Source: a virus
Lineage: Duplodnaviria > Caudoviricetes
DNA length: 54,161 nucleotides
Virus record (IMG/VR): IMGVR_UViG_3300043446_003900
Coordinates: 1-54,161 of that record
Reading direction: 5' to 3' (one strand)
Shown here piece after piece: positions 29,343-31,642 of the stretch. Position numbers and translations under genes: made by a program. Position 1 is the first letter of the stretch. Every line of letters begins with the position of its first letter. The notes under the pieces are model-generated. The model worked only from the letters and a program-made list of their open reading frames with translations. It made no database searches and was not told where the DNA came from.

Positions 29343-30116
29343 TTAAGGTCTTGGAGTTCCGTATACATTAGGACCCAATCTGACTACTGGTTTAACACCG
29401 CTGGCTCTATCAGGTGTAAGTCTTTCATTTTTAAATTGAGTTTCAAGACCTCTCATTGTTTTATAGTCTTGCGCTGCTTGTGCTCTGACTGCTGGATTAG
29501 GAGAATTTTGTGCAAGTTCACTCGCTTTCTGTACAGATCCAGGATATGGATTATTTCTGTCGTCAGTATATCCTCTGGCAATCAAACTAGGAGTTGTTGG
29601 TTGAGGAGTTGCTCTTCCAGGAGTTCCAGAAAGAGAACTTTCTGGTTTTATTTTAACAACTGTTGGTTGTGTTCTTTCTGGTGGATTTGGTTTAGTGGGT
29701 TCTGGTTTAGTGGGTTCTGGTTTAGTGGGTTCTGGTTTAGATGCTGGTTTTGCAGCACCACCACCACTTACATTAGCACTTAAGGATCCAACAGCACCTT
29801 GTCTAATAGATGAGGTGCTTGTGTCGGCATTTGGAATTCTATAAGGAACTCCTTTCCATTCTTTATCTCCACCACCACTTTGTGTATTAGAAATAGAAGC
29901 ACTGATTCCTTTATTGATTTTATCACCTTGCCCAGAAACAGTTCCTCCACCAAGAGAACCTGATACAGAAGACTGAGTTCCTTGAGCACTTTTTCCTTGT
30001 ATAGATCCAGTTACAGCAGTAGAACTACCAATAGGAGCGCCAAAAGTTTTTCTAAAACCAAGAGTTGCTCCAGTTACTTGTTCCAATACAGATATAAATT
30101 CGTTATAAGTTCTCAT
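29343..30116 (-). CDS. Late low-complexity protein, possibly an internal head protein
   Basis: Probable start MRTYNEFISVLE downstream of CTAAATA; Gly/Ser/Pro-rich with PEPTK x3. Confidence 0.65.
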   Translation of the reverse strand: MRTYNEFISVLEQVTGATLGFRKTFGAPIGSSTAVTGSIQGKSAQGTQSSVSGSLGGGTVSGQGDKINKGISASISNTQSGGGDKEWKGVPYRIPNADTSTSSIRQGAVGSLSANVSGGGAAKPASKPEPTKPEPTKPEPTKPNPPERTQPTVVKIKPESSLSGTPGRATPQPTTPSLIARGYTDDRNNPYPGSVQKASELAQNSPNPAVRAQAAQDYKTMRGLETQFKNERLTPDRASGVKPVVRLGPNVYGTPRP

Positions 30117-30135
30117 TCTTCTTGACCTTTTTATA

Positions 30136-30142
30136 TATTTAG
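30136..30142 (-). promoter_or_regulatory. Late promoter CTAAATA
   Basis: Directly after the terminator, about 20 nt before the ATG at 30116. Confidence 0.65.
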
Positions 30143-30143
30143 T

Positions 30144-30170
30144 AAAAAAGGAGGGAATCAACCCTCCTTT
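30144..30170 (-). terminator. Rho-independent terminator closing the riboswitch cassette
   Basis: AAAGGAGGG-TTGATT-CCCTCCTTT followed by TTT. Confidence 0.85.
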
Positions 30171-30173
30171 ATA

Positions 30174-30275
30174 TCAAGCAACTTGAGGTTGCTTCGCCAT
30201 ATTCAATTGTGCAATATAAAGAAGTTTTTCCTTCTTATCTTTTTTCTTAAGATAACGAACGAAGTAAGTATTCAT
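30174..30275 (-). CDS. 33-aa basic peptide (absent from the ORF track)
   Basis: MNTYFVRYLKKKDKKEKLLYIAQLNMAKQPQVA; AAGGAGG RBS and ATGA overlap with the upstream gene. Confidence 0.65.
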   Translation of the reverse strand: MNTYFVRYLKKKDKKEKLLYIAQLNMAKQPQVA

Positions 30276-30409
30276 TTGTGCCCCTCCTTTACAAACTTAA
30301 CACCACGATAGGTTTCGTTGTATTGTTGAGGTTGTTGCATCATTTGCTGTTGATATGCGATACGCTTTTCCGTATCATATTCAACGCCACGATATACGAC
30401 TTTAGACAT
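30272..30409 (-). CDS. DUF4278-like YRG-motif small protein (absent from the ORF track)
   Basis: MSKVVYRGVEYDTEKRIAYQQQMMQQPQQYNETYRGVKFVKEGHK with two YRGV motifs; AAGGAG RBS at 30423-30418. Confidence 0.8.
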   Translation of the reverse strand: MSKVVYRGVEYDTEKRIAYQQQMMQQPQQYNETYRGVKFVKEGHK

Positions 30410-30442
30410 TAGGTTTTCTCCTTAGTTTTTGAGGTTAAAGAG

Positions 30443-30495
30443 CGTTCCTTCAGTCGGCTTTTGCGTTCGCTATTTGCGAATAGCGAATGAACGAT
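30443..30495 (-). ncRNA. glnA-motif glutamine riboswitch aptamer (downstream copy)
   Basis: AUCGUUCA-UUCGCUAUU-CGCA-AAUAGCGAA-CGCAAAAGCCGACUGAAGGAACG: P1 CGUUC/GAACG, a perfect 9-bp P2 and a short P3; recognised as the glnA RNA motif. Confidence 0.85.
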
Positions 30496-30496
30496 C

Positions 30497-30748
30497 CGTT
30501 CCGAGTCGGCTTACTTCCGTCCTATTCAGTTTTAGCACTTGATTTTCATAACATCCTTTCGGAGTTCTAATAGCAATCGGTCTTCTCTTCTTTGATCTAC
30601 TACATCGTCGTTTTTAACGATGTCCATTAGTTCCCACGCTGCGTCACAACTTATTGTCACTTGATTGGATTTGGAAAATTGTGGCGTAGAAATAGAAAGA
30701 AGTGGAACCCATGCCAAGAGCAAAAGTGCCTTAGTCATAGGATGAACG
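30497..30748 (-). ncRNA. glnA-motif glutamine riboswitch aptamer (upstream copy) with a ~210-nt P2 loop
   Basis: 5' half CGUUCA-UCCUAU (30748-30737); 3' half AUAGGA-CGGAAGUAAGCCGACUCGGAACG (30525-30497). P1 and P2 pair perfectly. Confidence 0.7.
30532..30738 (-). CDS. 68-aa protein with a hydrophobic, signal-like N-terminus, nested inside riboswitch P2
   Basis: Intact ORF that nearly fills the loop; ATG overlaps the 5' strand of P2; no Shine-Dalgarno. Confidence 0.65.
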   Translation of the reverse strand: MTKALLLLAWVPLLSISTPQFSKSNQVTISCDAAWELMDIVKNDDVVDQRREDRLLLELRKDVMKIKC

Positions 30749-30758
30749 TTAGAGGATT

Positions 30759-30788
30759 ATTATACCTCTAGTTACAATATATAGTCAA
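30759..30788 (-). promoter_or_regulatory. Sigma70-type promoter of the riboswitch transcript
   Basis: TTGACT-N18-TATAAT; predicted start about 30752-30750, immediately before aptamer 1. Confidence 0.75.
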
Positions 30789-30791
30789 GTT

Positions 30792-30807
30792 TGTATATTT
30801 AGATACA
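30792..30807. promoter_or_regulatory. Putative NtcA box (TGTA-N8-TACA) enclosing a late promoter CTAAATA
   Basis: Minus strand TGTATCTAAATATACA; a second one-mismatch site TGTAACTAGAGGTATA at 30776-30761 overlaps the -10. Confidence 0.6.
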
Positions 30808-30919
30808 TTTTAGTATCATTATTATACTAAAGAGCGAAAAAAATTTTAAAATCTTCACGAGGAAAAATTTACCGGAAAATTTTTTACCCTATCTGGGAAA
30901 ATAAAATCCAATTTTGGTT

Positions 30920-31246
30920 TTAACGTTCAATATAACTTAAGGTATGATTGGATGCATAAAGTTGATTAATAATCATATCACATCCAATTTTTGGATTACA
31001 GTCGCCACAAGTATAAACATCCACAGCTGCCTTACCTTCCTCAGGCCATGTATGAATACTAATATGACTCTCTGATAACAAACAGATTACAGTAACTCCT
31101 TGTGGTTCAAACTTCTTTGAAATAGTCTGAATTACATTGGCCCCGCTTGCAACTGCTGCGTTTTCTAATAAGTCTATAAGACATCTCTCGTCGTCCAAAA
31201 GAACAAACGAGCATCCATACAAGTTAAGTAGATAATGCTTTCCCAT
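30920..31246 (-). CDS. speD: S-adenosylmethionine decarboxylase proenzyme
   Basis: MGKHYLLNLYGC...FEPQGVT...LSESHISIHTWPE...VDVYTCG, including the pyruvoyl self-cleavage ESH site. Confidence 0.93.
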   Translation of the reverse strand: MGKHYLLNLYGCSFVLLDDERCLIDLLENAAVASGANVIQTISKKFEPQGVTVICLLSESHISIHTWPEEGKAAVDVYTCGDCNPKIGCDMIINQLYASNHTLSYIER

Positions 31247-31267
31247 TTATATCAATAAAAAAATAAT

Positions 31268-31642
31268 TTATTTTCTTTTTTTTCTATCTGGTATTTTATA
31301 TCCCCAGAGTTTTGGATTAGTTCTTCCATATCCAAAATCAATTTTTTGAATTGTTCCAGGACCAAATTTATCATAATAAAGATCAAAAATTCTAGATCTA
31401 GTTCCTCTACACAAGTCCATATGAACTTCTTCACCTACCTGATACCAAATTAGATATGCATCGTTAGGCCAAGAAGAATCTTTTACTTGATCAAGAGATC
31501 CATTTTCAACTAAAATTTGGCAACCATATCTAGGAGGAAGAACTTCCTTTTCTTCTTTTGTCCATTCAGTCATGTCCTCCTCCTTTTCCTGAGACCTTTG
31601 AGTTGCATTACGAAGTTTACTACTCATACACGATTTCCCCAC
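31268..31642 (-). CDS. Conserved cyanophage hypothetical protein
   Basis: DLCRG...IFDLYYDKF...IDFGYGRTNPKLWGY; exact start uncertain. Confidence 0.7.
   Translation of the reverse strand: MGKSCMSSKLRNATQRSQEKEEDMTEWTKEEKEVLPPRYGCQILVENGSLDQVKDSSWPNDAYLIWYQVGEEVHMDLCRGTRSRIFDLYYDKFGPGTIQKIDFGYGRTNPKLWGYKIPDRKKRK

Follow-up and report, generated by a model that had tools for sequence, protein, structure and literature searches.

The 54,161-nucleotide (nt) viral DNA IMGVR_UViG_3300043446_003900 of IMG/VR (hereafter the window, meaning this stretch at its full length) carries on its minus strand a glutamine riboswitch aptamer whose P2 hairpin loop encloses a complete open reading frame (ORF) of 68 codons. 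Judged from its sequence, this aptamer (aptamer 1, 30497-30748) is a true glutamine aptamer of type 1 (glnA) and opens a tandem pair that precedes an IF17-like gene in a T4-like cyanophage. The nested layout is a conserved and recurrent class in cyanomyoviruses, where it occurs in the first aptamer of an array, in the second, or in both, and we consider it nearly certain that the ORF-in-aptamer architecture is real and conserved. As the best explanation overall, which we hold to be moderately probable, we propose that a split aptamer and the ribosomes translating the gene inside it exclude each other on one RNA.

A first-pass annotation, made from the letters of the window, had described this region as an aptamer whose P1 and P2 helices pair perfectly across about 210 nt, and every element was found where it had been placed: P1 is formed by 30748-30744 with 30501-30497, and the P2 strands are separated by 211 nt. 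The nested ATG (30738-30736, minus strand) overlaps the 5' strand of P2, its A and U being the final two bases of that strand, and between the nested stop and the 3' strand there is a spacer of 6 nt (AACUGA), both as the annotation had read them. The nested ORF was likewise confirmed to lack a Shine-Dalgarno (SD) site, there being no SD-like tetramer upstream of it. The transcription start, predicted at about 30752 from a promoter ending at 30759, lies a few bases 5' of P1 and about 13-15 nt from the nested ATG, for which the annotation had given about 13 nt. The neighbouring aptamer with a short P2, to which it had also pointed, is aptamer 2 (30495-30439), the sole match over the gathering score in a scan of the whole window with Rfam (RF01739, 35.4 bits, threshold 35), a scan that returned no ribozyme core.

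For the detection of split aptamers we used R1, a covariance model trained on 28 short-P2 and 20 ORF-bearing aptamers from other loci, with the window and 11 close relatives held out. With filters off, R1 aligned 30750-30496 end to end (35.8 bits, E 2.4e-9 over 601 bases) and placed the entire ORF as a single insertion in the P2 loop, the next chance match reaching 5.4 bits. This E-value excludes a chance origin of the split-aptamer layout. When applied to isolate phages, R1 gave 36-60 bits for ORF-bearing aptamers and 32-59 bits for short ones. The glnA-type identity proposed in the first-pass annotation thus rests on the R1 score together with a comparison of the two halves: the first aptamers of DSL-LC02 and DSL-LC03, which have a short P2 and score 35.6 and 34.2 bits with Rfam, are identical to that of the window outside P2 and in the flanks, and their 3' halves match its 3' half letter for letter. 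The junction and P3 of the window, CGGAAGUA-AG-CCGA-CU, align to the Rfam consensus as the accepted hit L002:588-633 does. Sixteen short and 5 long aptamers had a 3' half of the window type, short and long aptamers in general sharing their 3' core sequence variants, and P1 was invariant in all 48 aligned aptamers. The junction from P3 to P1 is GAAG in the model and only C in aptamer 1 (CU-C-GGAACG); because the short-P2 first aptamers with Rfam scores of 35.6 and 34.2 bits also have a C-only junction, this would mark a subtype among first aptamers rather than damage to the split one. In the minimum free energy (MFE) structure of the 254-nt RNA, P1, P2 and a 7-bp extension of P2 were all present (z = -2.05; 4 of 200 shuffles folded equally well). 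We find it likely that the split aptamer binds glutamine.

P2 is a real helix that closes across the ORF. In glnA RNAs it starts a single base past P1 and stops immediately 5' of a CGGAAG or CGCAAG junction, an arrangement that aptamer 1 shares with its UCCUAU/AUAGGA strands. Among 70 distinct long second aptamers, P2 positions 1-5 were paired in 70, 70, 70, 69 and 69, respectively, whereas with shuffled partners positions 4 and 5 were paired in only 33-35 of 70; the pairs at these two positions were of four types (C-G, A-U, U-A and U-G), so the covariation of P2 in other cyanophages, which the first-pass annotation had named as something to look for, was indeed present. For 31 distinct long first aptamers the corresponding counts were 31, 31, 31, 25 and 30. 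Taking positions 4 and 5 together, 189 of 194 cells were paired in register, compared to 53-108 of 194 when the partner was slid by 1-3 bases. Pair counting in a mixed alignment of 48 aptamers showed P2 to be 98.9% paired with four of four pairs changed on both sides, and the P2 covariation score was 0.215, compared to 0.070 after shuffling (none of 500 shuffles as high) and 0.011-0.060 after sliding.

To follow the layout across phages, loci were collected with a pattern fixing only the linker between the aptamers, which gave 128 sources (at least 119 IMG/VR contigs, 8 isolate loci and the window), and halves were counted without any pairing criterion, one half of an aptamer being set by the pattern and the other half being sought. 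Among the matches listed, a 3' core followed within 340 nt of the fixed 5' half in 124 of 128 second aptamers, the 4 misses being contig ends, and P2 was long (ORF-size) in 72 of the 124. For first aptamers, in which the 3' half was fixed, CGTTCA was found upstream in 126 of 128 (2 misses, again contig ends), with a long P2 in 32 of the 126. The span of P2 was bimodal, either 10-28 nt or 138-224 nt, and the ORFs nested in long aptamers had 49-69 codons. With S for short and L for long, the arrays among these matches were SL in 51 cases, SS in 37, LL in 14, LS in 13 and SLS in 1, a further 12 having a single parsed aptamer. The isolates S-PM2, S-CREM1 and P-TIM68 have two short aptamers each; S-SRM01, DSL-LC02 and DSL-LC03 carry an ORF of 50-55 codons within the second aptamer; and P-SSM4 and P-HM2 carry ORFs within both aptamers, annotated as the hypothetical proteins T4-GC 429, 430 and 541. 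When the window was compared with isolate phages using BLAST, homology started exactly at the 3' strand of P2.

A reverse search by protein similarity found 244 viral contigs that encode a relative of the window ORF, of which the best 80 were examined. The 5' aptamer half was located four bases 5' of the ATG in 80 of these 80, and the 3' core was present in 77; two of the misses have no sequence past the stop and the third is a truncated ORF. Accordingly, all 77 evaluable relatives among the best 80 were nested identically. The second aptamer at these 80 loci was long in 54 and short in 20. A search of 185,579 species genomes with one exact long-P2 pattern returned a single match, a 3.8-kb contig (L128) in a metagenome-assembled genome labelled Acetobacteraceae; the pattern was strict, and the result is no proof of absence from cells. 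L128 bears an array with a window-like ORF-bearing aptamer, including a 36-nt block that is invariant in relatives of the window, and most likely derives from a cyanophage and was binned with a bacterial genome.

Several lines of evidence point to the nested ORFs being genes under purifying selection. In all 97 distinct inserts the frame of the ATG stayed open for 85% or more of the P2 span, compared to 71 of 1940 interior shuffles (3.7%). Conservation of the ORF by the ratio of nonsynonymous to synonymous substitution rates (dN/dS), the other comparison suggested in the first-pass annotation, gave a median of 0.30 for interior codons in the window group (12 sequences, dS 0.38; 66 of 66 pairs below 1) and 0.24 in a P-SSM4-like group (58 of 58 pairs below 1), bearing the suggestion out; the large second-aptamer group gave 0.47, a saturated value (1687 of 1800 pairs below 1). 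The variable columns numbered 24, 17 and 35 at the first, second and third codon positions, so the third position varied most, and gaps in the coding part of the alignment were multiples of three. The nested proteins fall into three groups that BLASTP clustering keeps apart at E below 1e-8, and they share a hydrophobic start and a pair of cysteines, spaced by about 36 residues, that does not vary among 50 aligned proteins; as an idea, the fold may be a putative disulfide-stapled helical hairpin. The P-SSM4-like group corresponds to phrog_6471 and the second-aptamer group to phrog_504, both PHROGs families of unknown function. The window ORF, which belongs to the third group, had no match to a Pfam or PHROG family and no tblastn match among 50,697 isolate phage records, and in the protein atlas it matched nothing beyond its own 122-member viral cluster and two leads below 0.9. 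We regard the nested ORF as very probably translated.

The position of the ORF within the aptamer was strikingly constrained. In 100 of 100 parsed cases the nested ATG began 3-6 nt into the 5' strand of P2, and in 98 of 100 the nested stop fell within -16 to +13 counted from the first core base. In 68 of 100 the junction that precedes the 3' strand of P1 supplied the stop as UGA or UAA, the last codons there being the aptamer core, and in 12 of 100 the stop was the UAA of an AAGUAAG junction. G/A variation at the junction before P1 preserves a stop; S-SRM01 reads GGA there, and its ORF extends by five codons. An SD-like tetramer 4-11 nt upstream was found for 1 of 97 nested ORFs, compared to 113 of 114 downstream genes. 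Two or three bases of the AUG were within the uninterrupted P2 helix in 59 of 97 aptamers, and the mean predicted pairing probability of the AUG bases was 0.72.

Native inserts are also predicted to favour closure of P2. The mean P2 pair probability was 0.73 for native sequences but 0.18 for interior-shuffled ones, the native value being higher in 92 of 97; all five P2 pairs were present in the MFE structure of 80 of 97 ORF-bearing aptamers, and P1 in that of 90 of 97. The consensus fold of the window family is a long rod that pairs U-rich codons for the hydrophobic N-terminus with A/G-rich codons from the charged C-terminal half, and in the modelled fold RNA structure and protein composition may thus be mutually constraining. 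The rod interior pairs 30724-30700 with 30590-30560; the U and A fractions are 0.35 and 0.27 in the N-terminal third and 0.27 and 0.37 in the C-terminal third. The 7-bp extension of P2 was retained in the consensus fold of 12 relatives, with only G-U compatible changes.

In the mechanism that we favour, the P2 hairpin would be expanded to a folded rod of about 210 nt that doubles as the message for a small protein with two cysteines, and on one RNA the aptamer would either close or have its nested ORF occupied by ribosomes, not both. At high glutamine, P1 and P2 would be stabilised and the nested AUG buried, turning the nested gene off, and the helix masking the downstream SD would melt, turning the IF17-like gene on. 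At low glutamine, the nested AUG would be accessible and ribosome traffic would hold the aptamer open. In the accessible text of Klahn 2018, type-1 aptamers before DUF4278/IF17 genes turn translation on upon glutamine binding, and binding is proposed to melt a P1-attached helix that masks the ribosome binding site; a comparable SD-masking helix is predicted in the window directly after P1 of aptamer 2. In the glutamine-I structure the ligand is contacted by P1 and the junction and not by the P2 loop (Huang 2019, as far as its accessible part goes), and an insert in P2 is therefore sterically plausible. The anatomy favours a reciprocal control of both genes, nested and downstream, by glutamine, because the ATG is at +3 to +6 of P2 (100/100), SD sites are nearly absent (1/97) and the ORF ends in or just before the core; we put the chance of such control slightly below even. 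More tentatively still, ORF-in-aptamer riboswitches may form a distinct class, in which ligand and ribosome would compete for one helix, glutamine would silence the nested gene and activate the IF17-like gene, ribosome traffic would act as a second input, and arrays of one to three units would provide graded logic; such a class would be widespread in marine and freshwater cyanomyoviruses and invisible to current models.

A number of observations weigh against this mechanism or the evidence under it. RF01739, which the first-pass annotation had proposed to run on the intact region, gave no match to the split aptamer at 30497-30748 in a permissive run to E 10 (30380-30800), where only aptamer 2 and two chance hits appeared; this miss is expected because of the 211-nt insert. 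The split aptamers of P-SSM4 were likewise without a glutamine match in Rfam, and R1 with default filters misses the split aptamer of the window, the detection of which needs filters off. The sampled phages are related and non-independent, and the shuffle figures given here are not probabilities. The main set admitted sequences by at least three P2 pairs, a bias that is absent from the criterion-free count, and P2 is invariant within the window's own family, covariation arising only between families. Only one AUG base was in the uninterrupted P2 helix in 28 of 97 aptamers, and none in 10 of 97. P2 may also form without ligand and hide the AUG regardless of glutamine, in which case initiation would be confined to a co-transcriptional window, and a ribosome terminating in the core could unmask the downstream SD, which is the opposite sign. 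Finally, short and ORF-bearing versions of P2 swap freely among close relatives, as cargo would.

This last point leads to an alternative that we regard as rather unlikely, namely that the nested gene is passive cargo: the distal end of P2, directed away from the ligand pocket, would tolerate any insert, the genes would share an early promoter, closure would be kept for downstream control, the aptamer halves would act as homology arms for cassette swaps, and the nested gene would have no useful regulation by glutamine. All four combinations of short and long aptamers occur among the matches listed (SL 51, SS 37, LL 14 and LS 13, plus the single SLS), the second aptamer varies between long (54) and short (20) among the 80 loci with window-like ORFs, and short and long aptamers have the same 3' core variants, all as cargo would have it. 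RNA-library contigs of relatives even exchange exactly 20 interior P2 bases of aptamer 2 for 138 letters (joint 30466 to 30487; X1 three contigs, X2 one, X3 one), and the ligand contacts described in the accessible part of Huang 2019 leave the P2 loop free. Cargo, however, would be expected to bring its own SD, as the downstream genes do in 113 of 114 cases, but one is present in 1 of 97 nested ORFs; its start position should be free, but all 100 cases have the ATG at +3 to +6 and 98 of the 100 have the end of the ORF within -16 to +13 relative to the core; and the last codons and stop are the aptamer core itself in 68 of 100. Those same stops, in the UGA/UAA of the junction just before the 3' strand of P1 in 68 of 100 and in the UAA of AAGUAAG in 12, would suit a positive coupling of the IF17-like gene to the nested ORF, in which the terminating ribosome melts P1 and the SD-masking helix, or a second sensor, in which ribosome speed reports translational capacity as in leader-peptide attenuation, and the masking strand does lie directly after P1. 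This reading, in either form, is distinctly improbable, as the nested stop of the window lies 15 nt short of the aptamer 1 core and the whole of aptamer 2 intervenes before the platform, no terminator-like site occurs in 29900-31300, and the ORFs are conserved proteins of 49-69 amino acids, not short sensor peptides.

The remaining two alternatives deny a function to one of the two parts. If insertion of a gene had inactivated aptamer 1, leaving a relic beside a working aptamer 2, the lack of an Rfam match on aptamer 1 would follow; but both halves are kept in 124 of 124 second and 126 of 126 first aptamers with sequence available and in 77 of 77 loci from the reverse search, P2 covaries, the cores are identical to those of short aptamers, and the insert is shaped to close P2. 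The relic is disfavoured on these grounds as highly improbable. The opposite case, a non-coding structured extension of P2 with a spurious ORF, would account for the long rod into which the insert folds, for the missing SD and for the 36-nt stretch nearly without synonymous change, and in 29 of 97 inserts a different frame is open over 85% or more. We give it practically no credence, and rejected it on the ATG frame, open in 97 of 97 inserts against 3.7% of shuffles, on a dN/dS of 0.24-0.30 with third positions most variable, on coding-part gaps in multiples of three, and on two cysteines that stay invariant across three groups separated by BLASTP (E below 1e-8). The reading in which ribosomes and the closed aptamer exclude each other remains the one that we prefer.

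RNAs that share single traits with this architecture have been described in other systems. Group I and group II introns house ORFs for homing endonucleases and maturases in peripheral loops, so that their core closes over a distance and translation and folding can interfere. In contrast, the Rfam scan of the window showed no ribozyme core, the ORF does not encode a mobility protein, and the start codon lies within the closing helix. In the SAM-II and preQ1-II riboswitches, a translation signal is part of the ligand-stabilised helix and is hidden directly by folding. That signal belongs to the downstream gene, whereas here it belongs to the gene inside the aptamer, and a second gene lies downstream with the opposite expected sign. 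Transfer-messenger RNA (tmRNA) and dual-function small RNAs are single molecules that serve both as structured functional RNA and as message, but they are not ligand sensors, and their ORF is not the loop of a ligand-binding helix. Leader-peptide attenuators and systems pairing a riboswitch with an upstream ORF (uORF) share with the window a small ORF in a regulatory leader, and ribosome occupancy can decide the fold; unlike in these systems, the ORFs here encode conserved proteins of 49-69 amino acids enclosed by the aptamer, and no terminator was found in 29900-31300. The mycobacterial B12 riboswitch-uORF interplay is, from the part of that report available (PMC11260477), one such leader system.

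The closest relative is the glnA RNA itself (RF01739), with which aptamer 1 shares P1 (CGUUC/GAACG), the junction A, P2, the CGGAAGUA junction and P3, the leader of a DUF4278/IF17-like gene and the tandem pair; here, however, P2 measures 138-224 nt and contains a protein-coding sequence whose start codon contributes to the helix, and the Rfam model is blind to such aptamers. As far as the accessible parts of these papers go, tandem glnA RNAs were described in Weinberg 2010, Sherlock 2022 counted 157 doublets and 4 triplets of them, McCown 2017 listed only two glutamine aptamers in cyanophage genomes, the S-CREM1 paper notes glutamine aptamers in a cyanophage, and Klahn 2018 located type-1 aptamers upstream of DUF4278/IF17-like genes. 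An ORF inside a glutamine aptamer is not mentioned in the literature searched, the coverage of which missed some key papers and supplementary data, so that an earlier description is possible; within that coverage, the first-pass annotation was right to know of no account of the architecture. Tandem glutamine aptamers and cyanophage glutamine aptamers are thus already known, and what looks new is a protein gene packed inside a riboswitch hairpin, apparently overlooked.

Riboswitch aptamers are usually viewed as compact non-coding domains, whereas here the ligand-binding helix would be both container and gatekeeper of a conserved gene. At least 244 viral contigs carry one of the ORF families, and, in the tandem arrays sampled, an ORF occupies over half of the second aptamers. 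Since standard models miss ORF-bearing aptamers, the use of riboswitches by phages is under-counted. For phrog_504, phrog_6471 and T4-GC 429/430/541, all of unknown function, the arrangement would supply a regulatory context tied to the nitrogen status of the host. The system is suited to testing the competition between translation and ligand-dependent folding, and the reciprocal control of two genes by one sensor; the 3' strand of P2 in the window is non-coding and can therefore be mutated without altering the protein.

Features of the window around the split aptamer, with positions numbered from the first letter of the window
Feature	Position	Strand	Details
speD (S-adenosylmethionine decarboxylase), upstream neighbour	30920..31246	minus	gene order as in S-PM2
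Sigma-70-like promoter	30759..30788	minus	TTGACT 30788-30783, 18-nt spacer, TATAAT 30764-30759; 11/12 matches
Aptamer 1, 5' half	30737..30748	minus	P1 strand CGUUC 30748-30744, junction A 30743, P2 strand UCCUAU 30742-30737
Nested ORF, 68 codons (68 amino acids)	30532..30738	minus	fills the P2 loop; stop TAA 30534-30532; hydrophobic N-terminus; invariant C31 and C68
P2 extension, 5' strand GGCACUU	30724..30730	minus	pairs with 30540-30534; single-sequence fold
Invariant stretch within nested ORF, 36 nt	30599..30634	minus	no variation in 12 relatives; holds an 8-bp hairpin
P2 extension, 3' strand AAGUGCU	30534..30540	minus	spans the last Cys codon and the first stop base
Aptamer 1, 3' half	30497..30525	minus	P2 AUAGGA 30525-30520; junction and P3 mini-hairpin CGGAAGUAAGCCGACUC 30519-30503; P1 GAACG 30501-30497
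Aptamer 2, canonical	30439..30495	minus	22-nt P2 hairpin; RF01739 35.4 bits; R1 54.2 bits; 1 base after aptamer 1
Likely expression platform	30418..30442	minus	CUCUUUA 30442-30436 right after P1 can pair with UAAGGAG 30424-30418, which contains the downstream SD; predicted from the letters
Downstream gene, 45 amino acids, IF17-like (DUF4278-like)	30272..30409	minus	two YRGV motifs; ATG 33 nt past the end of the tandem pair

A strict promoter pattern, TTGAC-N17-20-TAnnnT at 7-12 nt 5' of the first CGTTCA, was matched in 53 of 128 arrays. The downstream protein of 45 amino acids matched phrog_5049 (E 1.3e-11) and reached 19.9 bits with Pfam DUF4278 (PF14105; E 9.7e-4), under the cut-off of 25.3; on these matches we label the gene IF17-like or DUF4278-like, short of proven DUF4278 membership. 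Across the arrays, 113 of 114 downstream genes had a Y[RK]G motif and an SD-like site. Terminator-like sites numbered zero within 29900-31300. The 3' strand of P1 in aptamer 1 (GAACG) and the 5' strand of P1 in aptamer 2 (CGUUC) are complementary and 2-6 nt apart, at 30489-30501 in the window and in every tandem linker; a local hairpin spanning the linker could compete with both P1 helices and so couple neighbouring aptamers.

Third codon positions of the nested ORF in the 12 relatives were compared inside and outside the invariant 36-nt block (30634-30599). Only 1 of 13 was variable inside the block but 40 of 55 outside (Fisher p 2e-5), and the block exceeds every invariant run of the aptamer core in length, which suggests an RNA-level constraint of unspecified kind. 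Its 8-bp hairpin has an AAAAAC loop, and GGAAC and AUCGUU within it resemble the aptamer P1 strands. The block may be a further RNA-level control element of the riboswitch-ORF device.

Upon searching metatranscriptomes, we found 24 runs with small shares of matching words, and the four runs that were mapped contain relatives of the region. One 518-nt RNA-library contig (X3, record 17) covers 30271-30634 and 30704-30759 of a relative. In the four runs the depth was 0 at 30800-30900 and near 0 below 30272, and one X4 contig reaches 30791; a stretch without cover carries no weight, and no transcript boundary was drawn. The contigs give neither starts nor strand and do not establish transcription or one continuous transcript; they are a weak hint only.

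Some further arrays deserve description. For DSL-LC03 (L005:537-692), the GenBank record lacks an annotation of the 51-codon ORF inside the second aptamer, tblastn finding no feature under the match. The triple array (L084:6503-6824) consists of a short aptamer, an ORF-bearing aptamer with a core of the first-aptamer type and another short aptamer. In P-SSM4 (L006:19-204), a manA RNA (RF01745, 184 bits) lies directly 5' of the ORF-bearing tandem glutamine aptamers, placing two cis-regulatory RNAs next to each other.

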